From an uncultured Candidatus Rokubacteria bacterium (GTDB taxonomy: Bacteria; Methylomirabilota; Methylomirabilia; Rokubacteriales; CSP1-6): a stretch of 64,000 bases of DNA. Where the stretch lies: positions 288,001 to 352,000 of the forward strand of contig CAVYTA010000005.1 in NCBI GenBank assembly GCA_963771355.1. The letters are read 5' to 3'. The translations under genes were made by a program, and so were the position numbers. This document shows positions 27,254 to 48,847 of the stretch, piece by piece; within the stretch, counting starts at the first letter, position 1; each line of letters begins with the position of its first letter. Below the pieces are notes generated by a model. It was not told where the DNA came from. It ran no database searches and saw only the letters and a list, made by a program, of their open reading frames with translations.

Positions 27254-27254
27254 C

Positions 27255-27854: not shown

Positions 27855-27856
27855 AC

Positions 27857-28441
27857 GTGTCGAGACGGTTGTTCATCGTGAATGTACTCGTGGGCGCGCT
27901 CGGTTGCCTGTTCGCGGCCGGCCTGATCCGCGAGGTGAGCACCGGGCACCCGTTGCCGCCGGTTCCCGCTCCCCGCGCCAGCCAGACCGCCCCCGAGGCC
28001 GGGGGAGCCCCCACCAGCCAGCCGGAACCGATCGTCGCCTATCAAACTATCGCGACCAAGAACCTCTTCAACCCGGCGCGCTCCGAGGTGACCGTGGCGA
28101 GCGTCGCAGCGTCGGGCCCCAAGCCCGTTCTCCACGGCGTCATGCTCGACGGCGACAAGAGCCGCGCGTATCTGGAGGAGCCACCGGCCAAGCGGGTCTT
28201 CGGCTACGCGGTTGGCGACACCATCGCGGGGGGCCGGCTGGACTCGATTCGTTCCGACCGCGTGGTGATCGCGCGGCCCGAGGGTCCGGTGGAGGTGCTG
28301 CTGCACGACCCGTCGAAGCCCAAGCCGGTGGCGCCCGCGGCAGCCGGCCCAGCCACGCAGCGAGTACTGCCCGAGCCAGCGCGCTCGCCCGGCCCCGGCG
28401 CCGTGCAGTCCCAGCCGCCAAGACAGGCCCTGCCCCGATGA
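27857..28441 (+). CDS. GspC-like protein (no PDZ domain)
   Basis: N-terminal TM, KNLFNPAR, VLHGVM…YAVGDTI…SIRSDRVVI HR-like domain; lies between gspM and gspD. Confidence 0.65.
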   Translation: MSRRLFIVNVLVGALGCLFAAGLIREVSTGHPLPPVPAPRASQTAPEAGGAPTSQPEPIVAYQTIATKNLFNPARSEVTVASVAASGPKPVLHGVMLDGDKSRAYLEEPPAKRVFGYAVGDTIAGGRLDSIRSDRVVIARPEGPVEVLLHDPSKPKPVAPAAAGPATQRVLPEPARSPGPGAVQSQPPRQALPR

Positions 28442-31353
28442 GTCGCGCCCGATTCGCGCGGTGGCTGTTGGTGATATGGGCCTTGACCGGCTGTGCCTCG
28501 GCTGCCGCACCGCCCGGCGGCCAGACGGGCCCCACCGTCACGCCGGCTGACCCGCCCCGGCCCAGGGTGGAAGTGACCACAGAAGCTGAACCCGTGCCGA
28601 GCGCGCCGGCTGGGCCGGTGGGACCAGAACCGGTAGCGCCCGCCGGTCCCCTCTCGTCGCTCTCGGTAGGCCCGGCCCAGCCCGCGGAGCCATCCCCCGT
28701 GGCGCCGCCCGCGCTGACGGCGCCCGGGGCGCCTTCACCCAAGGTGGCCCAACCCCCGGTCCCTGCTCCTAAGGTTGCCGCCGGACAGAGCGCTGTGCAG
28801 CTCAAGCACGTACAGGTGGAACAGCAGGCCGACTCCGTCACCGTGAAGCTCTGGACCACGGGGATTCCGAGCTATTCGGCCTCGTTGATCGACGCCCCCA
28901 CTCGACTCGTGATCGACCTCACAGGCACCGCCTACGCCTGGGACAAGTCCCGCGTGAATCCGGACGTGGCCCCGATCCGGGAGATCCGGGGCAGCCAGTG
29001 GAAGGTGGGCACGGCCCGCATCGTCCTCGAGCTGACCCGCAAGGTCGGCTACCGCATCGAGCCGAGTGCCGAGGGTCTGTCGATCATCTTCGATTCCTCC
29101 GCTACCGCCGTCAGGGCGGATGCGCCCAAGCCAACCGCGAGCAAGCCGGCGCCGAAGGCCGTCGCCGTGGTGGCCAAGGCAGAGACCTCCCCGGCCGCCG
29201 AGACGCCCAAGACGGAAACCCCCACAGTCACGCCTGCCGGGCCCCCCTCGGCTGCGGCAGCCCCCGCCCGGCGGCAGATCGTGTTCAACTTCGACAACGC
29301 CGACGTCGAGCTGGTGATACAGGCGGCGGCCGAGATTGTGGGCTTCAACTACGTGCTGGCCCCTGGAGTTCGCGGGCGCACCGTGACCGTGAAGACCCTG
29401 GGCAAGATCTCGGCCGACGAGGTCTTCGGGGTCCTGCTCACTATCCTCGATGTCAACGGTCTGGCCGCCGTCCGGACGGGCAACCTGTACCGGATCATCC
29501 CGCGTGAAGGCGCGCCCCAGACATCGATCAAGACGGTCGTGGGTCGCGACGTGGATCCGGCGCAGCCGGCCGACGAAATCGTTACCCAGGTGGTGCCGCT
29601 GGGATTTCTCGGAGCCTCGGATGCGGTGACGCTGCTCCGCCCACTCGTGCCCCCGGGGGGCACCCTCGGCGCGCATCCAGAGAGCAACCTGCTGATCGTC
29701 ACGGACACGGTTGCGAACATCCGCCGACTCCTCGACATCGTGAGGTTGGTCGACGTGGAGGGTGCCCACAGCGAGCTGCGGATCATCCCGCTCATGCACG
29801 CGGACGCCCAGGAGCTGGCCCAGCTCCTCACGCAGGTCTTCGCCAGCGGTCGCCTGAGCACGGGACTCTCGGGTGTGGGGGCCGGCGTGCCCGCCCCGGC
29901 TCCGCCGCCGCCGCCCGCGCCCGGAGCGCCCGGAGCGCCGCCGGCGGCCCCGCGGCCGCCGCCTGCCGGCGCGGGAACTCCACTGGGGAGCGAGGCGCCC
30001 TTGATTCTGCCCGAACCCCGCTCCAACTCCCTCGTGGTCCATGCGCGGAGAAGGGACATCGAGACCATCCGCCGGCTGGTCGAGAAGCTCGACGTGGACA
30101 TCTACGGCGGCCGGCGCGTCTTCATCTACTTCGTCGAGAACACCAAGGCCAAGGACCTCGCCACGACCCTCGACGCCATCTACGGCTCCGATCGGGGCCC
30201 CTCCATCACCGGCGTCCAGCCGACATTGCGGTCGCCCAGCATCTCCAGCCCGTACGGCACGCCCACCACCACCGCTCCCGGCGCGCCGTTGGCTCCGTCC
30301 CTGTCACCCCTGTCGTCGCCCCTGTCGTCGTCCCTGTCGGCTCAGGGGCCGGGCGGGCGGCTGCCCATCGGCAGCTTCCCGGGTCTGGCCGGCGGCGAGG
30401 GCGGGCCTCCCGTGGCCGAGGTCCGGATCATCGCCGACGAGGTCACCAACTCGATCATCGTGCCCACCTACCCGCGGCTCTGGAGGGAGATCGAGGAGAC
30501 CATCAAGAAGCTCGACAAGATGCCGCGCCAGGTACTCATCGAGGTCCTCGCCGCCGAGGTCACGCTGAACGACGATATGAAGCTCGGCATGGAATGGGCG
30601 ATCCGCTCCGGCAGGTTCACCGCGATCTCCTCGCCGTCCGGCACGCTTCCCGGGCGGCCCGATCGCGCCCTCATCCCCCTCGGGGGTATCGTCCCCCATG
30701 GATTCAGCGCCTTCGCCTTCGCCGCCGACAAGTTCCTCGCCGCGCTCAACGCCCTCGCCAGCGAGAACAAGGTCAACGTGCTGTCCAACCCGTCCATCAT
30801 GACCGCGGAGAACAAGAAGGCCGTCATCAATGTCTCGACCTCGGTGCCCATCGTCACGTCTCAGCAGGTGCCGGTGGCCACCGGCGGGATCACCGGCAAT
30901 TCCATCACGCAGGCCGTGGAGTACAAGGACGCCGGCATCATCCTCAGCGTCACCCCGCGCATCGGGGAGCAGGGGACGGTGTCCCTCGACGTCAAGCAGG
31001 AGTTCAACCAGGTAGGCGAAAACGAGCCCCCGCCCATCAACTCGCCTCGCTTCACCAAGCGGGAGGTCGAGACCTCCGTCGTGCTGCTCAACAACCAAAC
31101 GCTCGTCCTGGGCGGACTCATCCAGAACCGGCGCTCGCGGGTCCACTCTGGCATTCCCTTGCTGAGCCGCATTCCGGTCCTGGGCTATCTCTTCGGCTCG
31201 GTCGAGCAGAGGCTCGAGCGGACGGAGCTGCTGATCCTGATCACCCCCCGCGCGGTGGGCACCGCGCTCGACGCCGCGCGCATCACCGACGAGATGCGGC
31301 GTATCACGCCCGAGATGGAGCAGTCCATCCGCCAGGCGCCGCGCCAGCCCTAG
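28438..31353 (+). CDS. gspD: Secretin GspD, lipoprotein with N-terminal AMIN domain
   Basis: Lipobox LTGC; 'PTRLVIDL…IREIRGSQ…ARIVLEL' (AMIN); FNFDNAD (N0); QVLIEV, LGGLI, IPVLGYLF, LITPR. Confidence 0.92.
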   Translation: MSRARFARWLLVIWALTGCASAAAPPGGQTGPTVTPADPPRPRVEVTTEAEPVPSAPAGPVGPEPVAPAGPLSSLSVGPAQPAEPSPVAPPALTAPGAPSPKVAQPPVPAPKVAAGQSAVQLKHVQVEQQADSVTVKLWTTGIPSYSASLIDAPTRLVIDLTGTAYAWDKSRVNPDVAPIREIRGSQWKVGTARIVLELTRKVGYRIEPSAEGLSIIFDSSATAVRADAPKPTASKPAPKAVAVVAKAETSPAAETPKTETPTVTPAGPPSAAAAPARRQIVFNFDNADVELVIQAAAEIVGFNYVLAPGVRGRTVTVKTLGKISADEVFGVLLTILDVNGLAAVRTGNLYRIIPREGAPQTSIKTVVGRDVDPAQPADEIVTQVVPLGFLGASDAVTLLRPLVPPGGTLGAHPESNLLIVTDTVANIRRLLDIVRLVDVEGAHSELRIIPLMHADAQELAQLLTQVFASGRLSTGLSGVGAGVPAPAPPPPPAPGAPGAPPAAPRPPPAGAGTPLGSEAPLILPEPRSNSLVVHARRRDIETIRRLVEKLDVDIYGGRRVFIYFVENTKAKDLATTLDAIYGSDRGPSITGVQPTLRSPSISSPYGTPTTTAPGAPLAPSLSPLSSPLSSSLSAQGPGGRLPIGSFPGLAGGEGGPPVAEVRIIADEVTNSIIVPTYPRLWREIEETIKKLDKMPRQVLIEVLAAEVTLNDDMKLGMEWAIRSGRFTAISSPSGTLPGRPDRALIPLGGIVPHGFSAFAFAADKFLAALNALASENKVNVLSNPSIMTAENKKAVINVSTSVPIVTSQQVPVATGGITGNSITQAVEYKDAGIILSVTPRIGEQGTVSLDVKQEFNQVGENEPPPINSPRFTKREVETSVVLLNNQTLVLGGLIQNRRSRVHSGIPLLSRIPVLGYLFGSVEQRLERTELLILITPRAVGTALDAARITDEMRRITPEMEQSIRQAPRQP

Positions 31354-31417: not shown

Positions 31418-34400
31418 TTACTTCCTGATCTCGAGAAGGATGTACATCACCGGCGACGTACCGTTGCCGAAGGGTGACACGCGAATCGTCAACGGCTTTC
31501 CCGCTCCCCACGTGGAGTTATTCGGGATGGCGAGGTTGTACATGTACTTGCTGTCGACCTCGCGCATTACTCCCGTCGTGTCGGCATTCGACACGGAAAG
31601 CGTGTCGATGTAGTTGCTCGCCGATTCGGTGCCCGCACTGCTGACAAAGTCACCGTTGAGCAACTGGATCGCCGGCGCCAAGCCGCTCCGGTGTCCGCCG
31701 CAGCCGAAGTTGATCTTGACCGGCACGACCCGGCCCTTCTGGACGAGGTTGGACGTCCCCTCTCTCAGCGGCTCGAGGAAGTTACCGTTCCAGACGGTCA
31801 CTGCAGTCGAGGGGAAGGATGTGGAGACCCCACCATCCTTGTCCTTCGCCAGTGCGGCGACGGTGTAGGAGCCGCACACCCCGTAAGACGTCGCGAAGGT
31901 GTTTGTGTGAGGTTCACCGAACGTCACGCCACCGTTCCACGACCACCGCAATCCCGCCGCCATGTCTGCGCTCGAGGGATCGGTCGCCGTCCCCGTGAAG
32001 GTTACGGTCTCCCCCACGAGGACGCTCGTCGGGCTCGGCGTCACCGCAGTGATCGTCGGCGCCACATTCGTCACGTTGATCGTCTTGCTGTCGTTCCCGA
32101 CGCCCCCGTCCTTGTCCGTCGCCGACAGCTCACCACATAGGTCCCGTTATCGTCCGGCGTGAAGCTGAAGCCCGCGTCACTCCCCGTCGACCCGAAGGGA
32201 GCCCCGTTCTTCGTCACGCTCCAGCTCCGCGTGAACCCAGCGGCGGTGTCCTGCGAGCTCGGGTCCGTCACGGTGCTTCCCAGATTGATCGCGGTGCCCT
32301 CGGGGCTGCTCGCCGGTGCCCCCGTGATGGCTGCCGTCGGCGGCACGTTGGTCACGGTGATCGTCTTGCTGTCGTTCCCGACGCCGCCATCCTTGTCCGT
32401 CGCCGACAGGCTCACCACATAGGTTCCGTTGTCGTCCGGCGTGAAGCTGAGGCCCGCCCCGATTGCCCGATGCAAACGGGCTCCCATTCTTTGTCACGCT
32501 CCAGGCAAACGTGAACCCGGCGGCGGTGTCGGCCGAGCTCGGGTCCGTTACGGTGCTTCCCAGAGTGATCGTCGTGCCCTCGGGGCTGCTCGCCGGTGCC
32601 CCCGTGATGGCCGCCGTCGGCGGCACGTTGGTCACGGTGATCGTCTTGCTGTCGTTCCCGACGCCGCCATCCTTGTCCGTCGCCGACAGGCTCACCACAT
32701 AGGTTCCGTTGTCGTCCGGCGTGAAGCTGAGGCCCGCCCCGATGCCCGATGCAAACGGGCTCCCATTCTTTGTGACGCTCCAGGCAAACGTGAACCCGGC
32801 GGCGGTGTCTGCCGAGCTCGGGTCCGTTACGCTGCTTCCCAGATTGATCGCGGTGCCCTCGGGGCTGCTCGCCGGTGCCCCCGTGATGGCTGCCGTCGGC
32901 GGCACGTTGGTCACGGTGATCGTCTTGCTGTCGTTCCCGACGCCGCCATCCTTGTCTGTCGCCGACAGGCTCACCACATAGGTTCCGTTGTCGTCCGGCG
33001 TGAAGCTGAGGCCCGCCCCGATGCCCGATGCAAACGGGCTCCCATTCTTTGTGACGCTCCAGGCAAACGTGAACCCGGCGGCGGTGTCGGCCGAGCTCGG
33101 GTCCGTTACGGTGCTTCCCAGAGTGATCGTCGCGCCCTCGGCGCTGCTCGCCGGTGCCCCCATGATGGCTGCCGTCGGCGGCACGTTGCTGACCGTGAGG
33201 GAGAACGTGGTCGTCGCGGTCCCGCCATTACCGTCGTTGGCGGTGATCGTCACGGTTTGACTCTGAGCCGGACCGTCGGTCGTGGCGAACGACCAGCTCC
33301 AGGTGCCGGCCGCATTGGTCCCGGACTTGCTGACTGACCCGACGGAGGCGGATAGCGCGACCGTGTCGCCCGCGTTCGCGTCCGACCAGGTCCCGGAGTT
33401 GGAAGCCGTCGCACCCTCGTTCACAGCCACTGATCCGTTGTTACGTGCGATGGTCGGCGGGGTGTTGTCCGGCACGAGGGCAAAGTTCTTGCGCCGTGAC
33501 CGGCGTGGTATTGGTGATCGCGAACGAGGGGTGAGGTCTTGCGTCACGTATCCGTGATTTCGAAGCGGTGATCGAGATCGTGGCATTGAATTGCCAGCAA
33601 ACTGAACGGTTAGCGTAGTAGTTTCCCGTCGCGTCGGCGCTCGTCGTGGTGTTGAGGTCCCATTGCAGCCATTGGCCGCGGGTGGCAGCTGAGCTGCTGC
33701 CCGCGATGCGGAGCATTGCGTGCTGGCGTGCCCTTCACAGTGCCGCTCACCGTTTGATTCGCGTCCGCCCGGTACGGCCCCACGAACGGCCCGCCCTCGG
33801 CCAGGGGGTCGGCGCCGGCGGGCTGGATGGACTCGGTCGCCGTCGAGGCGAGGGCGCGGGCCATATTGATGCGCCCGTTGCCGGTCTGGATCTGGGTGCC
33901 GGCGGGGTCGGCGGTGCTGGCGATGCGGAAGACGATGACGCCATTCGAGAGCGTCGGGTCGACGGCCTTCATGAACGCGGCAAGACCCGCGACGTGGGCG
34001 GCCGCGGCCGAGGTGCCGTTGATCACCGCGTAGGCGTCACCGGAGCTCGTCGTCGGGATGTCGGTGCCGGGGGCGGCGATGAAGACCGCCTGACCCTCGT
34101 TGCTGAAGGCGGCTTGCGCGTCGTTCTGGTCGGTGGCGGCCACGCCCATCACGCCGCGGTCTCCGGCCGGGAACGCCGGAGTGCTCAAGGCGCTGTTGCC
34201 GGCCGAGGCCACGAGTACGACGCCACGCGACCACGCGTAGTCGATTGCCTCCTGGAGCGCGGGGCTGAAGCCCGGGTTGCTGAACGCCATCAGGATGACG
34301 TGGGCGCCGTGGTCGACTGCCCATATCACGCCTGCGATCACGTCGCTGTCGAGGCCCTCGCCGTTCGCGTTGAGCACGGTCACCGGCATGATCCGCACGC

Positions 34401-34998
34401 CGTCGTAGGCGACACCGGCGATGCCGTCGGGCGACGTGCCGCCGGTCTGGGCGGCGATGATGCCCGCCAGCCACGTGCCGTGGCCGCTCGGATCCGTCAT
34501 CCCGTTGGAGCCATCCAGGATCGAGGTCCCGGGGACGACCACGCCGGCCAGCTCGGGATGGAGGGCGTCGACGCCGGTGTCGAGGATGGCAACTTTGGCA
34601 ATACCGGTCGGAGTCACCGTTCCGAACACCTGGTCCCAGGCGATCTTCGGCAGGGCCCACTGGTCCGGGTAGAGGGGATCGCCAGGAACGGACTCGGAAA
34701 GACGGACCTTGTTCTCTTCGGCGCGTTCCACTCGAGGGTCGGCCTGGTAGCGGGCGAGGGTGTCGGCGAGCTCGGCGGCCGGGACACCGATCACGTAGAG
34801 GCGAAGGGCGGGGATGGACGATCTGAGGATGCCGCCGTTGCTTGCGATTACGTCGACCTGCGCTTGATCCGTGAGGCCGGCGACCAGCTTCATGATGATC
34901 GACGCTGGCGGCGCCGATTGCGCCGACGCCAAAGCCGGCAGAAAGAGACCACCGACCAGGCCGATCAAGGCCACGAGCACCGCGAATCGCTTCAACAT
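31418..34998 (-). CDS. Secreted S8 subtilisin-like peptidase with tandem PKD/Ig-like repeats and a PxKF-like C-terminal domain (multiple frameshifts)
   Basis: Signal peptide from ATG 34998; ILDTG/HGT/SAGN/GTS motifs; continues through ORFs 33441-33716, 32177-33586, 32071-32487 and 31418-32074 (GRVVPVK). Confidence 0.85.
32071..33190 (-). repeat. About 4 tandem 279-bp coding repeats (93 aa, PKD/Ig-like)
   Basis: Near-identical unit NVPPTAAITGAPASSPEG…FTPDDNGTYVVSLSATDKDGG; period 32709 to 32988. Confidence 0.9.
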
Positions 34999-35061
34999 GT
35001 TGTCCCCCGTTTGCGCTTTTCGATCGTTCGACAGACCACCCGCGTCACCTATAGAACATAG

Positions 35062-35117
35062 GCATGACCCGTGCCATCCACCGAGCGTGCCGAGGACAAC
35101 GTAATAACAGCCACTTA
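35062..35117 (-). promoter_or_regulatory. Sigma54 -24/-12 promoter plus IHF-like site for the S8 peptidase gene
   Basis: Minus strand TGGCACGGGTCATGC (GG-N10-GC, 35076-35062); TAACAGCCACTTA at 35105-35117 has one mismatch to WATCARNNNNTTR. Confidence 0.6.
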
Positions 35118-35239
35118 CGGAGCGATTCACTGGGAGGAACAAAATGGTGTAAAAGAAGTCGACGGATTTCGGCCGAAGGGCCCTCCAAAAGGGAGGCTCG
35201 AGCAGACGATCAGGCGGACGAGCGCCGCGGTGCTGTTAG

Positions 35240-35367: not shown

Positions 35368-36114
35368 CTATTCGCTGGTGGTGTCGGGCAGGCCAACCTG
35401 TCGAAGCAACGCCGAGCGCTGCGTCTTGAGGGCTGGATTCTCCGGAGCCTGATCGATCAGGTCGTTCAGCGCCGTCATTGCGTCGTACCAGAGGCCGGCT
35501 TCGGCGTACAGGGCGGGCAGGTCCGCCTTCGGTGTCCCCGAGGCCTTGGTGGCCAGCCCGTCAGGCAGGGCGACCCGCTCGACGGACCCGCCGGCCAGGA
35601 TGTCCTTCGACCGGCGTCCGGTGTCGGGCATGACGGCGACGTACCAGTGGTAGGCGACCCCGGGCGCCAGCCGGACGCCGTGGTCGGCCAGCCGGACGCT
35701 ATGGACGCCCGCCTTGACCGGCGGCTCGATGCGCAGCTCGACGAGGGGGTCGCTCTTCTGCGGATCGACGAGGGTAAGCTCGACCGGGTGTGAGCTGGGG
35801 CTGGAGATGAACCAGTACAGCACCGGCTGCTCGCTGGACGTCAGCCCCGTGTGGGCCGGCGCCAGGACCGAGAGGATGAACGCCTCACGGCCCGTTCCGC
35901 GGGTGCCGCCACCGACCCGGCCGCCGGGGGCCCCCCGCAAGGGCGGCTTGTAGACCGGCGCCGACGCGGTGGCCTTGGCGTCGGGGGTCGCAGCCGCCGG
36001 CGGTTTCTGCTGCGCATGGCCCGGGGCCACGGGGACAAGGACCGTGAGGGAACACAGGGCGATGGATGCGATCGCGATGCGCTCCAGGGCCAAAAACCTC
36101 GACGCTGCGCTCAT
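35368..36114 (-). CDS. DUF928 family exported protein
   Basis: Signal peptide; YKPPLRGAPGGRVGGGTRG, GLTSSEQPVLYW, YAEAGLWYDA, LLRQVGL. Confidence 0.85.
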   Translation of the reverse strand: MSAASRFLALERIAIASIALCSLTVLVPVAPGHAQQKPPAAATPDAKATASAPVYKPPLRGAPGGRVGGGTRGTGREAFILSVLAPAHTGLTSSEQPVLYWFISSPSSHPVELTLVDPQKSDPLVELRIEPPVKAGVHSVRLADHGVRLAPGVAYHWYVAVMPDTGRRSKDILAGGSVERVALPDGLATKASGTPKADLPALYAEAGLWYDAMTALNDLIDQAPENPALKTQRSALLRQVGLPDTTSE

Positions 36115-38171
36115 TGCTGTGCCTCCCGCGGCAGCCCGGTTCCGGCGACGCGTGACGTCGCGCGGGGAGGGTCTCCCGCCTGTAACGGTCGCGACCCGGC
36201 GAGGGACTCGGCCGAGCTCTGGACCGGCTCCGGCTTCCGCTCGCCTAGCACTCGATAGATCGTGACCAGCTGCTGTTTCCCTTTGAGTCGCTCCTCGGCG
36301 ACCCACTCGGTGTCGAACACGTCAGCCACGTACGCATGCGTGGAGTCCCCGATGAGGGTCCGGCATGGTCGGGTGAGAGGATCGGGCGGGTGCACGTCCT
36401 TGTCGAAGCTCTCCAGTCTCGAGGCGGTGTTCAGGGTGTCGCCCACCACAACGTACTCCCAACGATCGGTGCTGCCAAGGGTGCCCGAAACGGCCTCTCC
36501 GGTGACGATCCCGACCCGCATGCCGGTGACCGGCCTCCCGGCCGCCAGCCAGACCTGGTTGAGCTCGAGCAACCGGCGCTCCAGCGCCAGGGCACACCGT
36601 ACGGCGTTGACCGCATCGCGGGCGATCTCGGCCTCGGTACGCCGGGGTACCGGCACGCCGAAAAGGGCCACGATCGAGTCGCCGGCATACTGTCGGATGA
36701 CACCGCCGTGACCGCTGATCTCCGGCGCCAACGCGCCCATGTATTCGTTGAGCCAATCCATGAGCGACTCCGGGCCGACACGCTCGGAAACGGTCGTGAA
36801 TCCGGTCAGGTCCGTGAACAACGCGGTCACCACGAGGCGCTGGGGGCGGGGCCGGCCGCCGCCGGCGAACTGTTCCCGGTCGCGCCAGATGGCTTCTGCC
36901 ACTTCCTTGGACACATGCTGCGAGAAGAGACGCATCAGCATACCGCGTTCCGCGCTCTCTCGATAGGAACGATATGCGACCACAAAGCCGGTCGCGCCGA
37001 GCCAGGCGAGCCCCGGCGGCACCACCGGCCACCACCACCCTTTGACAAAGGCGACGTAGGCGGTCCCCGCGATCAGGATGAGACCCACGGCGACGGCCAC
37101 GGTCAGGCTGAACGCGTTGAGCGTCCGGACGCCGAGGAATGCTCCCAGGCCGGCCCAGAGGAGGACCCACAGCCAGCCAAGCCACAGGGGAGGGCTCCAG
37201 AGCGGACGCTCGCCCTTGAGCGCGGTGCGGAGGAGCTGGCTGACGAGGTGAGCGTGGATCTCGACGCCCGGAACTTGCTGTTTCGGACGCAGCCCGGCGC
37301 TGAGCGGGGTGTAGAAGTCGTCCTTGACGCTCTCGGCGGTCACTCCGATCAGGACGACGCGGCCTCGTACCAGCTCGGGAGGCACTTCGCCCCGCAGGAC
37401 GGCGCCGAGCGAGACCCGCTGGAACGGCCCGGGGCCGGCGAGATAGTCGACCAGGAACTGGTAACCACCGGCGTCCAGGCCGACATACGGCCCATCGTTC
37501 GGCCCGAGGGGGCGGATCGCGGTCGGACCGAGCTTGACGAGGGACGCGTCGGCGGCATCGGCGCCGAGCCCCAGTCCCTCCGGCTCCAGATAGTGCAGGG
37601 CCAGGCGAAGGGCGAACGCGTACAGCGCCGTCTCGCCGTCGTCCAGGAAGAGAAGGCCTCGCCGCACGATGCCGCCCGAGTCGACGACGATGTCGTTGAA
37701 GCCCACCTTCTCCGTGCCTTTCACCACCCGGGGCGGCGCCACCCCGGCCGAGGAGCCGTCGGCGAACTTCGTCACCACCACGACCGGCTGCGGCCCGCGA
37801 AGAATGAAATCGAGCTCGAGGGAGCCCGGCGCCACCGGCACGTCTCGATAGATGTCCAGCCCGATTGCCCGGGGGCCGAGGGCGAGCAGCGCGTCGAGCG
37901 TCTGCGCCAGCACCGCGTCGGTGAGCGGCCAGGTGCCCAGCTCCTGGATGTCGCGCTCGCTGATGGTCACCACGACGATGCGGGGGTCGGGCATCGCGTC
38001 CGGCCCCGGCGCCCGGATCCGGAGGAAGCGGTCGTAATGAGCGAGCTCCGCCGGCTCGAGGAGCCGCAACCCGCGCAGGCCCAGCACGATCGCGGCGACG
38101 GCGAGGGCGACCACGATGGGGACGACCCAACCGGGAAGGGAGGTGGGCAGCACGAGTCGGAGTCGGCGCAT
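36111..38171 (-). CDS. CHASE2 sensor - class III nucleotide cyclase
   Basis: TM, CHASE2 (WPLTD…AIGLDIYRD…PGVEIHA), three TMs, cyclase FTDLTGFT…AGDS…GDTLNTASRLE. Confidence 0.9.
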   Translation of the reverse strand: MRRLRLVLPTSLPGWVVPIVVALAVAAIVLGLRGLRLLEPAELAHYDRFLRIRAPGPDAMPDPRIVVVTISERDIQELGTWPLTDAVLAQTLDALLALGPRAIGLDIYRDVPVAPGSLELDFILRGPQPVVVVTKFADGSSAGVAPPRVVKGTEKVGFNDIVVDSGGIVRRGLLFLDDGETALYAFALRLALHYLEPEGLGLGADAADASLVKLGPTAIRPLGPNDGPYVGLDAGGYQFLVDYLAGPGPFQRVSLGAVLRGEVPPELVRGRVVLIGVTAESVKDDFYTPLSAGLRPKQQVPGVEIHAHLVSQLLRTALKGERPLWSPPLWLGWLWVLLWAGLGAFLGVRTLNAFSLTVAVAVGLILIAGTAYVAFVKGWWWPVVPPGLAWLGATGFVVAYRSYRESAERGMLMRLFSQHVSKEVAEAIWRDREQFAGGGRPRPQRLVVTALFTDLTGFTTVSERVGPESLMDWLNEYMGALAPEISGHGGVIRQYAGDSIVALFGVPVPRRTEAEIARDAVNAVRCALALERRLLELNQVWLAAGRPVTGMRVGIVTGEAVSGTLGSTDRWEYVVVGDTLNTASRLESFDKDVHPPDPLTRPCRTLIGDSTHAYVADVFDTEWVAEERLKGKQQLVTIYRVLGERKPEPVQSSAESLAGSRPLQAGDPPRATSRVAGTGLPREAQQ

Positions 38172-38172
38172 C

Positions 38173-39918
38173 TCAGAACGCCGCCAGCAAGAACTGGAAG
38201 TGCACGCCGGCCTGCCCCTTCTCCCCGTGGCGATCCTTGGTGACGATAACGTCCTGGAACGTGTCGGGGCTGCCGATGATCCTGACATCCCGCAGCCGGT
38301 ATCCGAAATATATCTCGAACTGAGGCTTCACCGACACGACGCCCGGGAAGGTGAGGGCCCACCGGAGGCCAATCCCCACACTGGAGATGTCGATGGGATC
38401 CGGCGTCTCCCCCACCGCGCTCCACCCGCGGCCGTAGTCGAAGAAGGGGGCGAGCTCCAGGTAGTCCGCCCACCGCGTATTGCGGACCAGGGGCACCCGC
38501 AGCTCGACCGAGGCCAGCAAGGCATTGTCCCGAACGAGCGTGTTTTCCCGGTAGCCACGGACGGTGAAGCGGCCACCGATCGACACCTGCTCGAGCGTGA
38601 GGAGCGGATCGGGGGTGAGCTGCACGTCGGCCCGGACGATCAGCTGGCTGTCCAGGACCGGGAGGCGACTCGCCCACTGGACCTGCCCCAGCCAGGAGAA
38701 GAATCTCCCGTCGGGCACGTCAGGATCGGAATTCACAGTGGCCCCCAGCGCGTCGATGCCGAACGAGAAGCGCGACCGCAGGGCGATGGCCTGGCGCTGC
38801 GTCCGGTGGACGAATTCCTGGGCCACGCGCAACGCGCTCACGACGGTCTCCCCGTCGTCCGTGGAGCCCGGCAAGAGCGGAAACCCCTTGCCGAGGAGCG
38901 ACGTGGTCTCCTTGAGCCGCTCGCCGATCAGCTCGACCGCCACCGCGGTCTGGGGCGTGCGATACACAGGCTGTCGGATTCCCGCAGTGAAGATCTCCGA
39001 CTCGCTCTTGATGTCCAGCTCCCTGAACTGCTCGTCGACGATGCTGAACGCATTCCGCCGGTACTGAAAGCTCGCCGTCGTGTCCCAGGCGTTGAGGGGA
39101 ACGGCGTACCGGAAGTCCAGCAGCGGATCCAGCCCGTCCGAGCGTCCGTATCGGAGGGTGAGGATGTCTCCCCAGCCGAGCAGATTGACGTTCTCGAGCG
39201 TGACGATGCCGCGCTCCGCGCCGACCGAGGTCGACTGGTGGTTGTTGAAGTCCAGCAGGAGGCGGAAGGGCTGGCGATCCTCGACCTGCACGTCGAGCAC
39301 GCTCTCACCGGGCCGGAGGCCGGGCTTGAGGTCCACCCGGAGGCGCTGGATCCGCGGATCGTCGAGGAGCAGCTGGATCTGGCGCTGGAGCTCGTTGACG
39401 TTGAGGGGGGCGGTGAACGCAAGCCGGCGGCGGAGGTAGCCGGTCCGGAACCACCGGTTCCCGCTGATGTTGAGCTCGCTCACGCCCCCCTCGATCACCT
39501 GATAGGTGACCTGGCCATCCTGGATGGTCTGGTCGGGAAGGATCACGCCCGAGTTCACGAAGCCCGCATCCGCGTACAGCCGCGACAGCTCGAGTCGGAG
39601 CGCCTGGAGATCTTCCTGGGTGAGATACCGGTTCTCGTAGCGCTCGGTGATCTTCGCCAGGGCTTCGGGGGGAAAGACGGTGCTGCCCACCACGTTCACG
39701 CGCTGGACGAACACGCGCAGACGCAGTGGCACTCCGATCTCGGGCTGCCGCGGAGGCGCCAGCGGCGGCAGGACTCCCTCGGGCTCGGCCGGGGGGACCT
39801 GGGCCCTCGCCGAGGCCGGTTGGAGCACGAGGAGGAGGAGGAAGACGATCGAGATGACACTCCCTGCGCGGCGGGAAAGCCGTGCTGCGCAGGCGAGTCG
39901 GTCGCTGCTTACCGTCAC
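38173..39918 (-). CDS. TpsB (ShlB/FhaC/HecB family) outer-membrane transporter
   Basis: POTRA region, GGRFTVRGY (VRGY motif), terminal Phe; GTGA overlap with the TpsA stop. Confidence 0.9.
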   Translation of the reverse strand: MTVSSDRLACAARLSRRAGSVISIVFLLLLVLQPASARAQVPPAEPEGVLPPLAPPRQPEIGVPLRLRVFVQRVNVVGSTVFPPEALAKITERYENRYLTQEDLQALRLELSRLYADAGFVNSGVILPDQTIQDGQVTYQVIEGGVSELNISGNRWFRTGYLRRRLAFTAPLNVNELQRQIQLLLDDPRIQRLRVDLKPGLRPGESVLDVQVEDRQPFRLLLDFNNHQSTSVGAERGIVTLENVNLLGWGDILTLRYGRSDGLDPLLDFRYAVPLNAWDTTASFQYRRNAFSIVDEQFRELDIKSESEIFTAGIRQPVYRTPQTAVAVELIGERLKETTSLLGKGFPLLPGSTDDGETVVSALRVAQEFVHRTQRQAIALRSRFSFGIDALGATVNSDPDVPDGRFFSWLGQVQWASRLPVLDSQLIVRADVQLTPDPLLTLEQVSIGGRFTVRGYRENTLVRDNALLASVELRVPLVRNTRWADYLELAPFFDYGRGWSAVGETPDPIDISSVGIGLRWALTFPGVVSVKPQFEIYFGYRLRDVRIIGSPDTFQDVIVTKDRHGEKGQAGVHFQFLLAAF

Positions 39919-42900
39919 CGGCCACACGCCGCGTCCAGATACGACCGGCGGAGCCCGGGCCACTCACTGGCGAGAAACGGCCCCGCGCCCCCGGCCACTC
40001 CGGCGGGTCGGAGCTCCCTCAGCGCGCTCGGCAGGAGGCCGCCGGGCTCGAGGGGCAGCCCCTCGCGGCCGGCGACGACCAGGCTGCTCGTCTTCCCCTC
40101 GGCCAGGCGGGCGGCACAGGAGGCGCGCAGGAGCGCGGCCGCTTCCAGCACCTCGGTCGACAGCTCGGCGAGGCTCCCGCTCACGTCGGTGACCACCGCA
40201 TTGATGTTGACCGTGCCGGGCGCGCTCAGCGCCGACGACGCCGTCACCGCCGTCGCGATGGGCGTGGAGCTGAGCATCACGTTCGCAAAGATGCTGACAT
40301 TGCCGCCCGGACCGCCGAAGGCATCGGCGTGGATGCCCGAGTTGTCCAGCACGATGAAGTCGAGCGGGTGTCCGCTCGATCCGAGGGTAATGTTGCCGCC
40401 CCCGCCGACACCGCTCCGGACGCTCGTGGTGATCTGGCTGTCGATCATGTGCAGCAGCGAGCCGGTGGAGGTGATGGTGATGTTGCCGCCGTCGGCCTGT
40501 ACCGAGTCGGTCGAAATCGACGCGTGATCCATCTCGAACAGGCCGCCGAAGATGATGTTGATGCTCCCCGCGGTGGCGCTGGGGCCGCCGGTGCTCGACG
40601 CCGAGATGGTGCCGCCGTCGGCCAGCCGGATCTGCGGCGCGGCCAGCGTGATGTTCCCGCCGGGCCCCGTGCCGGCGGTGGTGCTGAAGAGGCCGCTCGC
40701 GCCGGTCGGCGACGCCCCGGTGATCGTGATCGACTCGCTGGCGGTCACGTCGATGTTCCCGGCCGGCCCGCTCGCCGGGAGCAGACTGGTGCTCGACGCC
40801 GAGATGGTGCCGCCGTCGGCCAGCTGGATCTGCGGCGCGGCCAGCGTGATGTTCCCGCCGGGCGCCGTGCCGGCGGTCGTGCTGAAGAGGCCGCTCGCGC
40901 CGGTCGGCGATGCCCCGGTGATCGTCATCGATCCGCTGGCGGCCACGTTGATGTCCCGGCCGGCCCGCTCGCCGGCAGCAGACTGGTGCTCGATGCAGAT
41001 ATGCTGCCGCTCGCGCCGGTCGGCGACGCCCCGGTGATCGTCATCGATCCGCTGGCGGCCACGTTGATGTCCCCGGCCGGCCCGCTCGCCGGGAGCAGGC
41101 TGGTGCTCGACGCCGAGATGGTGCCGCCGTCGGCCAGCCGGATCTGCGGCGCGCTCAGCGTGATGTCCCCGCCGGGCCCCGTGCCGGCGGTCGTGGTGAA
41201 GACGCCGGTCGGCGACGCCCCGGTGACGGTGATCGAGTCGCTGGCGGTCACGTTGATGTGCCCGGCCGGCCCGCTCGCCAGGATCACGCCGGTGCTCGAC
41301 GCCGAGATGGTGCCGCCGTCGGCCAGCTGGATCTGCGGCGCGGCCAGCGTGATGTTCCCGCCGGGCGCCGTGCCGGCGGTCGTGCTGAAGAGGCCGCTCG
41401 CGCCGGTCGGCGACGCCCCGGTGATCGTGATCGATCCGCTGGCGGCCACGTTGATGTCCCCGGCCGGCCCGCTCGCCGGGAGCAGGCTGGTGCTCGACGC
41501 CGAGATGGTGCCGCCGTCGGCCAGCTGGATCTGCGGCGCGCTCAGCGTGATGTCCCCGCCGGGCCCCGTGCCGGCGGTCGTGGTGAAGACGCCGCTCGGG
41601 CCGGGAAGCCCCGATGCGCCGGTCGGCGACGCCCCGGTGACGGTGATCGAGTCGCTGGCGGTCACGTTGATGTGCCCGGCCGGCCCGCTCGCCAGAGATC
41701 ACGCCGGTGCTCGACGCCGAGATGGTGCCGCCGTCGGCCAGCTGGATCTGCGGCGCGGCCAGCGTGATGTTCCCGCCGGGCGCCGTGCCGGCGGTCGTGC
41801 TGAAGAGGCCGCTCGCGCCGGTCGGCGACGCCCCGGTGATCGTGATCGATCCGCTGGCGGCCACGTTGATGTCCCCGGCCGGCTCGCTCGCCGGGAGCAG
41901 GCTGGTGCTCGACGCCGAGATGGTGCCGCCGTCGGCCAGCCGGATCTGCGGCGCGCTCAGCGTGATGTCCCCGCCGGGCCCCGTGCCGGCGGTCGTGCTG
42001 AAGATGCCGCTCGGGACGGGAAGCACCGACTCGCCGGACGGCGACGCCCCGGTGATCGTGATCGAGTCGCTGGCGGTCACGTTGATGTGCCCGGCCGGCC
42101 CGCTCGCCAGGATCACGCCGGTGCTCGACGCCGAGATGGTGCCGCCGTCGAAGAGCTGGATCTGGGCGGACCGGATGGTGATGTTCCCGCCGGGCGCCAT
42201 GCCGGCGGTCGTGCTGAAGATCCCGCTCCGGGCGTCGTTGACGAAGCCCCCGAACGGGGCGGGAAGCACCGACTCGCCGGTCGGCGACGCCCCGGCGATC
42301 GTGATCGACTCGCTGGCAGTGACGTCTATTTGCCCGGCCGGCCCGGTCGCAAAGAGCACGCTGCTGCTCGCGACTTGACCGCCCCCGGTGAGCAGCAGCG
42401 TCCCGACGTTGAGCACGATGGCACCCGCCCGCCCGGTCTCCAGGGTGCTCGAGTTGATGAACCCCCCATCGATCACGACCGTTGGCGCCGAGAGGGTCAC
42501 GCTGCCGACGTCCTGGCGGAAGGTCTGGCTCGAGATCCCCGCCCGATCGGTGATGCTGACCGGGCCGTGGGCCGTAACGGTGATGCCGCCCCCCTGCGCC
42601 GTGACGTCGCCGCTCTGGATCACTGCCTGACTGCGGAGGTCGAGGCTGCCCACGTCGAGGGTGATGCGCCCGGCAGGCGTCGGATCTCCCAGCGGCGTCG
42701 TGCCCGAGCTGCTGCTGGTGAAGATGCCGGTCGGGCTCGTCGTGCTGCCCGCCCCCGAGATCAGGGCGGGTCCCGTCACCGTCACCGTCACGTTGCCGCC
42801 GGGCAAGGCGCTGGCCGCGTTGTGGCTGCCGATTGTGCTGCCCGCCATCAGATTGAAGGACCCCGCGTTGACCGAGATGTCGCCCGCCCGCCCGTCGTCC

Positions 42901-44398
42901 GACGTCTGCGAGACGACCGTCGCGCCAGCGTCGACCGTTACGGTCCGCGCCGAGAGCGAGAGCCCGCCGCCGTCGCCGGCAAAGATCGTAATGCTGCTGA
43001 CGCGGCTCGGGCTTCCGAACACGTCGCGGCCGGAGATGGTGATCGTGTCGGCCGAGATCGCGACGTTGCCCCCTGGTCCCGTGAAGCCGAGGTTCACGCT
43101 CTCGAGGGCGCCGGCCGTCTGCCAGCGTCACCGTTCCACCGGTCGCGGTGACGGTGAGCGATCCCGCGCCCGTTCCCAGCACGCATTGTCGCCGAGGAAA
43201 CTCAGCGTGCTCACGACGGCGCCGTCGGCGATCTCGATGGATCCGCTGACCCCGTCCGCGGGCCGGCCCACGGTGATCCGTATGTTGCCGCCCTGGCCGC
43301 CCCCGGACTGCGTGACGCTGTTGATCGAGGCGCCGCTCGTGACCCGAAGGGTGTCCGCCGTCACGTCGACGTTGCCTCCGCGGCCGGCACCCGAGGTCGC
43401 CGCCGTCACCGACGAAAATCCCGAGACCTCCACGGCGGGCGCCGCCAACCGAATATCGCCCCCTCGGCCGCCCGCGAACGTCTCCGTCACGACCGTCGAC
43501 GAGTTGATGATCTCTAGCCTCTGAGTAGCTCCCAGGTCGATCCCGACCTCGGACGTATTGTTGAACTCGCCGAAGCTTTGCGCGCTGATGAATGCGCCGT
43601 CTATAGTGACCTGGCCCCCGCGGATGACGACCGAGCCGTGCGGGTCGCCGTTCGCGTCGAGAACGCTGCCCGAGATCCCGACCTGGCCTAGGCTCGCCGT
43701 GGTGCCCTGGAGCGTCGCGATGGAGACCTCGCCGCCCGTCACGCTCGCCACCTGCAGGCGGCCGCTGGACGCCTGCAGGTACGCCCCCCGGCGATGGTCA
43801 CGGCTCCGCCCACGATCCCGAGCGTCTGTTCGGGGGGGACCTGCAGGAAGCCGCCATCGACGATGATGGGCCCGCGCGGTCCCAGGAATCCGAAGCTCGC
43901 GGGGTCGGCCACCGAGAGCACGTTCGCCTGCTGGTTCGGACACGTCGACACACAGAACGTGCTGCCGTCGACGAAGCGGATGTAGTCGGCGCTGCTGACG
44001 TGAAACGACCCGCCGACGTTGAGCGTCGCGCCGGCACCGAAGATCACGCCGGCGGGGTTGATCAGGAAGAGGTTGGCGCCCGGGTACGTGAGGCTGTCGA
44101 TGGTCCCGTAGATGCTCGACATCTCGCCCCCCGTAACGCGGCTCAGGATGTTGCGCGTGACCAGGTTCGGCGTCGTGTTCTTGAACTGGGCGGTGTCGAA
44201 GGACCCGACGCTGAACTGGCCGAAGCTGTGAAACAGGTTCTGGCCGCCGCGGGTACCCGCCCGTGATCTCGTATGTCCCGCCCGAGAGGGTGTGACCGTG
44301 GTCCCCAGCCCGCTCGAGGTGATCGCCGTGGGCCCCTGGGCGCGGGCCGGCGCCGCGCCCAGGAGGAGGGCTAACATGACGAGGAAGACGATACCCAT
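39915..44398 (-). CDS. TpsA filamentous haemagglutinin-family exoprotein (about 7 frameshifts)
   Basis: Signal peptide; TPS domain NLFHSF, NILSRVTGG, NLFLINPAG; GGNITI beta-helix repeats split over several ORFs. Confidence 0.85.
40590..42340 (-). repeat. About 8 tandem 189-216-bp coding repeats plus one truncated unit in TpsA
   Basis: Anchor CCGAGATGGTGCCGCCGTC recurs near 40601, 40799, 41113, 41302, 41500, 41717, 41915 and 42131. Confidence 0.9.
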
Positions 44399-44488
44399 AC
44401 GCTCCTCTAACGTCTACCTTATTCCTGCCAGCCGGTCTGCCTGCCGGCAACGGGTCCGCTCGCAGGCCGGCTGCTTCACACTGACTCC

Positions 44489-46361: not shown

Positions 46362-48683
46362 TTACAGCCAGTTGTTGATGAGTAGAAACGGCGACCAGAA
46401 TCCGGGATGTTCGTAGCGTGGATCACTCAGCAGCTTCACCTGCGCGCGCTGGAGGGCCACCCCTCGTGAGACCGAGGGGCTCTTCAGCTCACGGTAAAAA
46501 TCCGCAATCAGTCCGGCGGAGGCCTCGTCATTGACGCTCCACAGCGTGGCCACCGCGCTCCGGGCGCCGGCCTTGACGGCGACGCCGGCCAGCCCCAGCG
46601 CCGCCCGATCGTCACCCTCGGCGGTGTCGCACGCGCTCAGGGTCAGGAGCTCGAGGGGCTCGTCCCGGTACTTGAGCACCCCGATCAGCTGATCGAGGCG
46701 GTCCATCGTCACCTTGCCGTCGAAGGCGAGGAGGAAGGTCTTGTCCACGTCGCCGCCGAACTCGCCATGCGAGGCGACGTGGAGAATCGAGTAGGTGCCC
46801 GTCTTCAGCTCGCGCTCGAGGCTGGCGACGGAGAACTGCGCGTTGAGGAGGGTGGTCCCGCCGAAGACCTCCCGCACGTTGGCGATCTCCGTCTCGACCT
46901 CGGGCAGCGGCGCGAACCCCTGGACCGCCTCGGTCACTCCCACCGCCAGGATCCGGGGGTTCTTGCGATCGAGCGGGCGCGGGTCGGTGAGCTTGAGGCC
47001 GGGGGTGATGGCCAGCGCGTATTTTGCTATCAAGAACTGCTTACCGTCGTGGAGCGCCGCCATCGGAATCGTACGGAGCGGGCCATCCGGCACGAACACC
47101 AGGGTGTCGATCTTGGCGGCGGCCAGCTCGGCCTCCAGCGGGCGGATCAGCCACTCGTGGAGCTGTTGAGCGGGGCGCAGGTACTGGCGGGTGGTTCGAC
47201 GCTCGAGCAGGTTCCGGAACCGCCGGACCTCCTGCGTGAGCCTGGCCTCCCCGATCGGCACCACGAAGCGCCGGAGCCCGGACGGGAGCGTGACCAGCAG
47301 CTCGATTCGATCGGCCAGCACGATCGGGTACACGACGGCGGCGGTCGGCGACACGACGTCGAGCTGGGTCATCCGCGACAGCGCGATGTCCACGCAGTCG
47401 TCGCGGAAGTAGTCGCGCAGCTCCGCGACCTTGAAGGACTCTACCACCTCACGCGCTTCGGTGAGGAGGGTCAGGCGCTCCCGGTCCAGCGTGGTCCCTC
47501 CGGCCGCTCCCGACGGGGCTGCCTGGCCATCGCCCGCCCGGCGGAGGAGCAGGTCGACGAGCTCGAAGTAGAGCGGTCCGATGGACTCGCGAAACGAATC
47601 CGCGGACGCGTCGTAGCGCACCGACAGCTCCGGTCGCACCGCGGCCACGTGCTGGGCGGCGGCGCGATAGGCGGTGAGGGCCTCATCCATCGCGCCCATC
47701 TTCCGGTGCAGCCGCGCCACCTGCCACTGCCACCGGTACAGCGCCTCCGGCGCGTGCGCCTGCTGCGCGGCGAAGATCGCCTCGCGCGTCAGCTGTAGCG
47801 CCTCGGGGTACCGGCGCTCGTCCTCGTACAGGGCTCCGAGGTAGCCCCTCGCATAGGACGTGGTCCGCCGGTCGCCGAGCTGCTCCGCGATTTCGCTCGC
47901 CCGGCTGAAAGCCCGGGCGGCGCGCAGGATCAGCTCGCCCCGGGGGTCCGGACCCGTCCCGCGCAGCTCGCGATAGCCGACGCCAATGCTCACGAGGAGG
48001 AATGACGCCTCTCGGGAGGGGCTGGACTGCTCCGCCGAAGCGAGCGCGTCGTCGAGGGCCTCCCGGGCCGCCCGGGCGTCCCCGGCCTCCCGCAGGGCTC
48101 GGGCCAGGTTGACTCGGGCCCGCGTTCGTTGGGACATGTCGCCGGTTCGCTCCGCGAGCGCGGCGCTCTCGCGATAGACGGCGACGGCCTCGGGCGCCTT
48201 CCTCCGTGTGGCCAGGAAATTCCCGAGGTCATTCAGCACGGCGGCGGTGAGCGCCGTGTCCCCGCCCTCCCGTGCCATGTCGAGAGCCCGCCTCAGCGTG
48301 ATCTCGGCGGCGTCGGGGGGGCCGGTCGCGATGAGGACATTTCCCAGTCGGGACAGGATCCACGGGACGTGCGCGCGCTCCTCGGAGCCTTCCGCCAGCT
48401 TCAACGCCCGATCGAGGACTCCGACGGCCTGCCGGTACCGTCCGAGCGCGGCGTATGCCTCGCTCGCGTGCACCAGCGCCAGGATCTGGCCCGCTCGATC
48501 GCCCGCCTGCTCCGACGCGCTCGCGGCGAGCATCCAGCTTTCGATCGCGCGATCGAAGGCGCCTCGCTCGAAGGCGGCGCGCCCCGTCGCCAGGTGCGCT
48601 TGGACGTCGGGTGACGGGGCTGCAGACGCGGGTGAGCAGAGGAAGGCCGTCAGGAGGACAAGGACGAGCAAGACGTAAGGCAC
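46362..48683 (-). CDS. Exported TPR-CHAT (caspase-like) protease; start approximate
   Basis: Hydrophobic signal …SPASA; TPRs; VPDGPL, HVASHG (His), LSACDT (Cys), ATLWSV, HPGFWSPF. Confidence 0.9.
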   Translation of the reverse strand: MPYVLLVLVLLTAFLCSPASAAPSPDVQAHLATGRAAFERGAFDRAIESWMLAASASEQAGDRAGQILALVHASEAYAALGRYRQAVGVLDRALKLAEGSEERAHVPWILSRLGNVLIATGPPDAAEITLRRALDMAREGGDTALTAAVLNDLGNFLATRRKAPEAVAVYRESAALAERTGDMSQRTRARVNLARALREAGDARAAREALDDALASAEQSSPSREASFLLVSIGVGYRELRGTGPDPRGELILRAARAFSRASEIAEQLGDRRTTSYARGYLGALYEDERRYPEALQLTREAIFAAQQAHAPEALYRWQWQVARLHRKMGAMDEALTAYRAAAQHVAAVRPELSVRYDASADSFRESIGPLYFELVDLLLRRAGDGQAAPSGAAGGTTLDRERLTLLTEAREVVESFKVAELRDYFRDDCVDIALSRMTQLDVVSPTAAVVYPIVLADRIELLVTLPSGLRRFVVPIGEARLTQEVRRFRNLLERRTTRQYLRPAQQLHEWLIRPLEAELAAAKIDTLVFVPDGPLRTIPMAALHDGKQFLIAKYALAITPGLKLTDPRPLDRKNPRILAVGVTEAVQGFAPLPEVETEIANVREVFGGTTLLNAQFSVASLERELKTGTYSILHVASHGEFGGDVDKTFLLAFDGKVTMDRLDQLIGVLKYRDEPLELLTLSACDTAEGDDRAALGLAGVAVKAGARSAVATLWSVNDEASAGLIADFYRELKSPSVSRGVALQRAQVKLLSDPRYEHPGFWSPFLLINNWL

Positions 48684-48820
48684 GAGCGAAGCTCCTATGC
48701 GTGGGAGAGGGTCTTGGAACACATACACTAATGGAGGAAGGATTGTCAAGACCGACAAGTACTTACCAGATTTGCGAGGCGCGGACTGGTGCAGCCCATA
48801 CCGTAAGCGCACAAACTGAT

Positions 48821-48847
48821 GACAACGCGATAACAGCCACTTAAGGA
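48821..48847. promoter_or_regulatory. 27-bp motif shared with 35095-35121 (IHF-like core)
   Basis: 24/27 identical bases. Confidence 0.6.

Follow-up and report, generated by a model that had tools for sequence, protein, structure and literature searches.

On its minus strand, the 64,000-nucleotide stretch analyzed here (the window; positions 288,001 to 352,000 of contig CAVYTA010000005.1 from an uncultured Candidatus Rokubacteria bacterium, assembly GCA_963771355.1) carries a gene for a membrane-bound class III nucleotide cyclase with a CHASE2 sensor domain. The catalytic domain has the class III fold, intact metal-binding and transition-state residues, a fixed pair of Gln533 and Val613 in the two base-reading columns and pocket neighbors that are smaller than those of related cyclases. 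The open reading frame (ORF; 36111-38288, minus strand) encodes 725 amino acids from its longest start. Since homologs, 684-686 amino acids long, begin at the second Met and the stop codon of the adjacent fhaC gene lies 1 bp before that ATG, the gene was taken to run from 38171 to 36111. Residue numbers refer to the 725-residue translation (P0001), and subtracting 39 converts them to the 686-residue protein. Besides CHASE2, Pfam shows only the cyclase domain, as a Guanylate_cyc match (PF00211) over residues 487-628, and a hydropathy scan indicates that hydrophobic segments flank CHASE2, one at the N-terminal side and others after the domain. The AlphaFold2 model of the catalytic domain (mean predicted local distance difference test score 96.2) has its closest fold in CyaB from Pseudomonas (Z 27.0, root-mean-square deviation (rmsd) 1.6, 192 aligned residues), followed by CyaC from Spirulina (Z 26.2) and Cya2 from Synechocystis (Z 25.4, rmsd 1.9, 191 aligned residues), the three matches being tied within about 1.6 Z. 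The best sequence match in the PDB is Cya2 (2W01; E 2e-25), and a sequence search found no solved relative of CHASE2. The closest locus with a name, L001, is 96% identical and bears the title Candidatus Rokubacteria, and the metagenome runs containing the stretch are mostly from soil and rhizosphere.

Table 1. Features of the cyclase gene and of its neighbors in the window.
Feature	Position	Strand	Basis or remark
CHASE2-membrane-class III cyclase gene, 686 aa (P0001 residues 40-725)	36111..38171	minus	Homolog N-termini; fhaC stop
CHASE2 extracytoplasmic sensor domain, residues 65-383	37140..38096	minus	Pfam PF05226, 207 bits
Cyclase catalytic domain, residues 477-687	36228..36860	minus	Structure alignments, Pfam, AlphaFold2 model
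Asp493, first metal-binding Asp (FTD)	36810..36812	minus	121/121
Gln533 (CAG), Lys (ATP)/Glu (GTP) column	36690..36692	minus	Structure alignments; 121/121
Ala535 and Val540, pocket positions -2 and +3 from the second metal Asp	36669..36686	minus	Ile and Met in Lys/Thr relatives
Asp537, second metal-binding Asp (RQYAGD)	36678..36680	minus	121/121
Glu611-Tyr-Val613-Val-Val615 strand	36444..36458	minus	Glu611 as in Lys/Thr relatives; Val615 replaces Ile
Val613 (GTT), Asp/Thr (ATP)/Cys/Gly (GTP) column (EYVVVGD)	36450..36452	minus	Alignments; 120/121
Asn620 and Arg624, transition-state pair (NTASR); Ser623 where Cya2 has Tyr	36417..36431	minus	121/121 each
DUF928 gene, hydrophobic N-terminus (predicted exported)	35368..36114	minus	Pfam PF06051; ATG overlaps cyclase stop (ATGA)
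ShlB/FhaC-type outer-membrane transporter	38173..39963	minus	Pfam PF03865, PF08479; stop 1 bp before cyclase start
Two-partner-secretion (TPS; filamentous haemagglutinin-like) passenger, three frames	39915..44398	minus	Pfam PF05860, TIGR01901
ORFs of the TPS passenger	43739-44398, 43128-44492, 39915-43097	minus	
TPR-CHAT (caspase-like) protease, hydrophobic N-terminus, start uncertain	46362..48842	minus	Pfam PF12770

HMMER alignments with solved structures place Gln533 on the Glu of Cya2 (2W01), on the Lys of its E488K variant (6FHT) and on the Lys of CyaB and CyaC, and Val613 on the Gly of Cya2 and the Thr of CyaB and CyaC. Because E488K turns Cya2 from GTP- to ATP-specific (PMC5995499), the column of Gln533 can be regarded as base-selecting. 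Neither canonical pair fits Gln533/Val613, being Lys with Asp or Thr in adenylate cyclases and Glu with Cys or Ser in guanylate cyclases (PMC6005667, for the latter). Misalignment was ruled out as an explanation, as no gaps occur around either column in five PDB alignments.

Conservation was followed in 121 sequences, comprising the query and the best 120 of 884 matches, with identities of 62-99%. Gln533 is present in all 121 and Val613 in 120 (one has Ala), down to 62% identity, and 39 of 209 columns are fully invariant in this clade, Gln533 among them. Asp493, Asp537, the phosphate-binding Arg591, Asn620 and Arg624 also occur in 121/121 and the phosphate-binding K669 in 117/121; with the catalytic columns invariant, decay to a pseudo-enzyme is unlikely. 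The original prediction, made from the letters of the window, had stated that the metal-binding Asp residues (FTD, AGD) and the Asn and Arg of NTASR are retained while Gln and Val occupy the positions of the ATP-selecting Lys and of Asp/Thr, and all of these assignments were borne out. It had also left room for read errors, which are ruled out by the conservation among orthologs, by synonymous codons and by the agreement of contigs from other runs: at nine loci with the RQYAGD motif, the window included, Gln is encoded by CAG (seven) or CAA (two) and Val by GTT, GTC or GTG. Both codons are also spanned by contigs from one RNA and three DNA runs, and neither codon appears among the 40 of 56 sequence differences listed for them. 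The RNA-run contigs span parts of the cyclase and DUF928 genes, which is not proof of transcription. As judged from these sequences, the Gln/Val pair is real and under purifying selection.

Pairs are written below in one-letter code, first column before second. In a FastTree phylogeny of 184 rows and 196 columns, from which ten pocket columns had been excluded, the Q/V proteins form one branch (support 1.0) nested among K/T proteins, with loci titled Rokubacteria, Methylomirabilota, Burkholderiales and Gammaproteobacteria. All six own-genus genomes with a match have Q/V, whereas a genome of the same family (G024) has K/T (8 of 41 relatives matched). One locus titled Actinomycetota (L002), with a cyclase domain 93% identical and the same gspD neighbor, is likely a misbinned contig. 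When columns were called clade-specific if a residue reached 90% or more of the clade but no more than 15% of 78 K/T relatives, seven of 209 were obtained: Ser525, Arg532, Gln533, Ala535 (Ile in the relatives), Val540 (Met), Val613 (Thr) and Val615 (Ile). Six of these sit in the two base-pocket loops, and three of the pocket-loop changes, Ile to Ala, Met to Val and Ile to Val, lead to smaller side chains. This is the opposite of the Pycsar pyrimidine cyclases, where the base is selected by bulky K104 and F109 around D106 in AnPycC and by R142 and Q144 before D146 in EaPycC (PMC11224242). Smaller residues at -2 and +3 from the second metal Asp would suit a purine that carries an additional 2-amino group more than they would a pyrimidine, pocket size being judged here from residue identity because the model is a ligand-free monomer.

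The wider family was represented by its 150 best representatives at 50% identity (two extra domains of P0237 were dropped). Catalytic residues are nearly fixed across this set while the base pair varies, with K/T in 78, D/T in 25, R/T in 10, Q/A in 5, R/N in 4, E/A and K/S in 3 each, Q/V, N/T, S/T and Q/N in 2 each, and 14 singletons. Thr is retained in 1 of 12 Gln representatives versus 120 of 138 others. Gln changes nine times on a full-length tree of 95 proteins made without the pocket columns, and in eight independent pairs taken on well-supported branches, loss of Thr went with Gln the same way in 6.1, the opposite way in 0 and without difference in 1.9 (median sign-test p 0.031, range 0.016-0.125). 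A single Gln clade was rejected by the approximately unbiased test (p about 1e-56; 10 versus 24 rows, LG+G4), the 34 rows having been chosen after the 95-protein tree had been seen. The repeated origin and this rejection suggest that Gln with a small non-polar second residue was reached several times in the family. An E/A group resembling Cya2, in which Lys stands two residues before the second column (position -2), arose within the family too.

Similar variation was found outside this set. In a metagenome sample drawn by a motif outside both columns, from which three partial rows were dropped and in which kin are not independent, 11 of 25 family domains (L020-L044) are without Lys versus 1 of 54 distant cyclases (L045-L099). 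In the class of genome G042, where 9 of 401 genomes matched, K/T was seen six times, D/T twice, and R/N and Q/V once each, and in six of eight multi-copy genomes the copies differ in their base pair. The cyanobacterial loci (L100-L129, L140-L148; 41 of 301 genomes matched) have K/G (22/30) or K/T (8/30), the K/G members having KFTGD, in which the Lys is retained, the Thr of the second column is gone and another Thr stands two residues before the metal Asp. A D/T subgroup (P0133, P0143, P0193 and others; L030, L034, L042, L137, L139) has Lys at -2 in 28/28 members, Lys three residues after the metal Asp in 22/28 and often Phe or Tyr two before it, which makes it a candidate for use of a different nucleotide or for a relocated adenine-reading Lys. 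R/N and R/T subgroups (P0132, P0146, P0153, P0219; L032, L131) have His two residues after the second column (EYNxHGD), and the offset of their Arg matches that of R142 in EaPycC, a cytidylate cyclase.

A profile search of the genome gave 40 cyclase domain rows, 33 of them with both columns filled. The first column of these 33 holds Gln in 21, Lys in 7, Arg in 3 and Glu in 2, which lowers the surprise of finding Gln, and the commonest Gln pairs are Q/T (12) and Q/S (6). Many of the Gln domains belong to a TVNQVMGDG paralog group, and several have His for the catalytic Asn. The other cyclase of the window, a fusion to an AAA ATPase (13925-17026, minus strand), had been cited as keeping the Lys (EKYAGD). 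The Lys is indeed there, but the second column holds Met, not Thr or Asp, so that this K/M enzyme is itself non-canonical and no canonical control; its loop is shorter and its alignment less sure. Two other CHASE2 cyclases are encoded in the genome (L149:5770-7878 and L150:5970-7708), one Q/T, also with QYAGD, and one K/T, both on other contigs with unrelated neighborhoods, and the gene for the K/T enzyme is split over frames in the assembly. Rarity was thus overstated in the original prediction: many cyclases of the genome have Gln, departures from the code such as Glu/Gly (Cya2) and Gln/Asn have been published, and its comparator lacks the canonical pair.

The minus-strand gene order is TPR-CHAT protease, a frame-broken gene without family assignment, TPS passenger, fhaC, cyclase and DUF928. 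In 9 of 11 GTDB loci, several of which are on short contigs, the next gene after the cyclase is DUF928; 7 of the loci have CHAT nearby, and 7 have TPS or FhaC. The cyclases in such cassettes are Q/V (L001, L003, L005, L006, L020), K/T (L007, L008, L026, L033), E/T (L027, L028), D/T (L030) or R/T (L043). Taken over the recurring cassette as a whole, the pairs comprise K/T, D/T, R/T, R/N, E/A, K/G and Q with various second residues. Nearly all loci have one cyclase gene per cassette, L044 having two family cyclases in tandem; L057 (288-2052) has two DUF928 genes in tandem. The His and Cys motifs of CHAT (HxASHG, LSAC) are kept in the window and in 15 locus ORFs, and together with the hydrophobic N-termini of the CHAT and DUF928 proteins this points to the envelope as the likely source of the input. 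An Atlas search with DUF928 matched only DUF928 clusters, and in the literature searched DUF928 occurs in one paper only. The genome has 12 matches to cyclic nucleotide-binding domains (CNBD), none on the cyclase contig, and their phosphate-binding motifs are uninformative on the cognate receptor.

Some features of the surroundings were noted in addition. The TPS passenger (39915-44492) and the gene upstream of it (44489-46309), both on the minus strand, are frame-broken, and the corresponding genes of L001 and L003 are broken too. Indels of one base relative to short-read contigs suggest assembly errors, but cover is thin and the sequence of the region is far more divergent than that of the cyclase. 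DUF928 is separated from a type II secretion cluster by a subtilase followed by Ig/PKD-like repeats (31418-35142, minus strand), apparently a single gene with broken frames. No such gene intervenes between DUF928 and gspD in L001, L002 and L004. In the own genus (L001, L003, L004) the cassette stands tail to tail with the type II secretion cluster, which in the window occupies 24834-31353 on the plus strand.

Among characterized enzymes, Cya2 of Synechocystis (2W01) shares the CHASE2-membrane-class III cyclase layout (PMC5995499, PMC6005667), and also a first residue other than Lys, a second residue that is no acceptor and a complete homodimer-type site. CyaB and CyaC (3R5G, 1WC0) are the closest folds and have identical catalytic residues, but their Lys/Thr is replaced here and the family of the query carries an additional loop (FDK...CRxLI) following the NxxxR helix. 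The tested mycobacterial enzyme with a Gln/Asn pair and dual activity is reportedly Rv0386 (Castro 2005), whose Gln presumably stands in the same first base-reading column. Enzymes of the Rv0386 type resemble the query in Gln-based base reading, but have Asn, a polar second residue, instead of Val613, and are cytoplasmic cyclase-ATPase-LuxR fusions instead of CHASE2 membrane receptors. A preprint attaches the Gln-Asn pair, with which a mycobacterial cyclase reportedly shows adenylate as well as guanylate activity, to Rv2488c (bioRxiv 2024.03.06.583649). CyaD1, CyaD2 and CyaK of Sinorhizobium, with NsrA of the outer membrane, are also CHASE2 cyclases, and a protein signal reaches them by way of a beta-barrel in that membrane (PMC13001267). 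Compared by description only, they are the closest analogs in function but differ in making cyclic AMP (cAMP) for Clr, whereas the barrel here is of the FhaC type with a TPS passenger, CHAT and DUF928. Pycsar and Pucsar enzymes show that a class III family can diversify its base pocket for different cyclic nucleotide monophosphates (cNMPs; PMC11224242, bioRxiv 10.64898/2026.08.12.744502), but they are soluble, paired with a cNMP-gated killing effector and have bulky or polar pocket residues, none of which was seen here. Membership in Pycsar was ruled out from the neighbors (fhaC and DUF928) and from Gln533, Ala535 and Val540 as compared, by offset from the Asp, with R142/Q144 and K104/F109; that no Pycsar chain is among the 50 fold matches listed excludes nothing. 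CHASE2 receptors are not mentioned in the parts of the Pucsar preprint that were covered (bioRxiv 10.64898/2026.08.12.744502). A full-text literature search, which took in few subscription papers so that absence is not established, turned up nothing about a Gln/Val cyclase or the cassette, and enzymes with Gln/Val or Gln/Ala may already figure in earlier published alignments.

With modest confidence, we read the enzyme as a self-sufficient homodimeric purine cyclase that would have lost its adenine-specific readout and would use GTP to a substantial extent, the likely product being cyclic GMP (cGMP) as well as or instead of cAMP, probably with some cAMP alongside. The amide of Gln533 could act as donor to adenine N1 or as acceptor from guanine N1-H/N2-H, Val613 would take away the side-chain acceptor for adenine N6, and Ala and Val in place of Ile and Met at positions 535 and 540 would make room for the 2-amino group of guanine. 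A small non-acceptor second residue is also found in known GTP users, namely Gly in Cya2, whose pair is Glu/Gly (PMC6005667), and Ala in the GTP cyclase XC_0250 of Xanthomonas (PMC3770947). From gene order, the input would be an envelope signal handled by the TPS passenger, FhaC, the CHAT protease and the DUF928 protein, and the output would go to a receptor encoded elsewhere. The earlier suggestion of a promiscuous enzyme or of a different cyclic nucleotide thus gains indirect support from the loss of both adenine readers, the fixation of this change by selection, the co-changes in the pocket and the repeated origin of Gln with loss of Thr, with GTP, a purine, favored over a pyrimidine. The further suggestion of a partner fared less well. 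A weak or regulatory subunit whose base-reading residues are supplied in a heterodimer is very improbable: the two other CHASE2 cyclases of the genome could pair with it, but they are encoded on other contigs, as described above, nearly all cassettes hold a single cyclase gene, with no second one in the cassette of the window, and one chain carries both metal and transition-state half-sites, complete and invariant, unlike the degenerate halves of known heterodimers (PMC6005667).

Several observations weigh against substantial GTP use. Glu, the hallmark of GTP users, is absent from the query, and where Cya2 combines Glu/Gly with a supporting Lys, placed by alignment two residues before the second column, and with a Tyr, the query has Gln/Val with Glu611 and Ser623. 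Glu611 is retained in 98% of the Q/V clade, and 10 of 12 Gln proteins keep Glu at -2, as Lys proteins do, so that Gln may act as a mimic of Lys and donate to adenine N1; Lys at -2 occurs in 34/34 Asp, Glu or Asn proteins versus 0/116 others, these being raw counts with only three independent pairs (p 0.25), by which co-evolution beyond kinship is not shown, as it is not for Arg with His (one of six independent pairs, p 1). The K101E/D157G variant of Ma1120 prefers ATP about seven-fold (kcat/Km 1.92 versus 0.29; PMC4215837) and C541G in human GC-1 lost rather than gained GTP specificity (PMC6885636), results which imply that residue codes predict poorly. The pair test for Gln and Thr loss is borderline, and the FastTree phylogeny under it leaves 40 of its 92 inner branches open. 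The 78 additional ORFs picked by a codon-bias filter at 18 loci contain no gene for a cGMP receptor or any other cNMP-binding, TIR or effector protein. For the missing Glu, the Glu at -2 and the Ma1120 and GC-1 results, we keep as a lesser but real possibility that the enzyme is in practice an adenylate cyclase, in which Gln533, held by Glu611, would donate to adenine N1 in place of Lys, a backbone carbonyl beside Val613 would read N6, and the changes would tune rate or the dimer set-point instead of the base. This would suit the pairing of Gln with Thr or Ser in 18 of 33 cyclases of the genome, the nesting of the Q/V clade among K/T proteins, the ATP bias surviving in Ma1120 double mutants (PMC4215837) and reference-list titles (titles only) according to which specificity residues contribute to dimerization. 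A simple Lys mimic, however, would not need the loss of Thr, nor a residue other than Ile two before the metal Asp, each of which accompanies Gln in 11 of 12 cases. A pyrimidine or unusual cyclic nucleotide (cCMP, cUMP or cIMP), made as in Pycsar but for envelope signaling, is very improbable. Pyrimidines are selected in EaPycC and AnPycC by the very positions that changed here (-4, -2 and +3 from the second metal Asp), and sister groups have Arg in the first column (15/150) or, among Asp-type proteins, Lys three after the Asp (22/28), but the Q/V clade has Gln, Ala and Val, smaller than in K/T relatives, where Pycsar has bulky or polar residues, the PADLOC PycC models give 69 bits for the query against 70 bits for the Lys cyclase of the window, and neither the neighbors nor the 78 further ORFs include a CNBD-TIR or transmembrane effector.

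Non-canonical base pairs of this kind were already known, and the testable part is the family-wide retuning of the pocket. Only tentatively do we suggest that the cassette is an envelope-signaling system that repeatedly swaps its messenger, with cAMP from K/T enzymes, cGMP from E/A enzymes and, by a code based on Gln, from the repeatedly evolved Q/V and Q/A enzymes, and other products, possibly cyclic pyrimidines, from R/N, R/T and D/T (with Lys) enzymes. If true, messenger diversification of the Pycsar kind would extend to membrane receptors outside anti-phage defense, and every cassette would signal through a channel of its own even where a genome encodes dozens of cyclases. Bacterial sources of cGMP are few and are recognized by Glu; an adenylate cyclase annotation is attached to thousands of bacterial enzymes that have Gln in the first column, as 21 of 33 do in this genome alone. 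Should the enzyme prove to be an ordinary adenylate cyclase, the Lys/Thr rule would still be retired as a requirement. The family is a natural experiment, in which scaffold, cassette and catalytic residues stay the same while six or more base-pocket patterns recur, and the product of each pattern type would yield a code that predicts the products of bacterial class III cyclases and would also show whether messengers other than cAMP are routine in envelope signaling.

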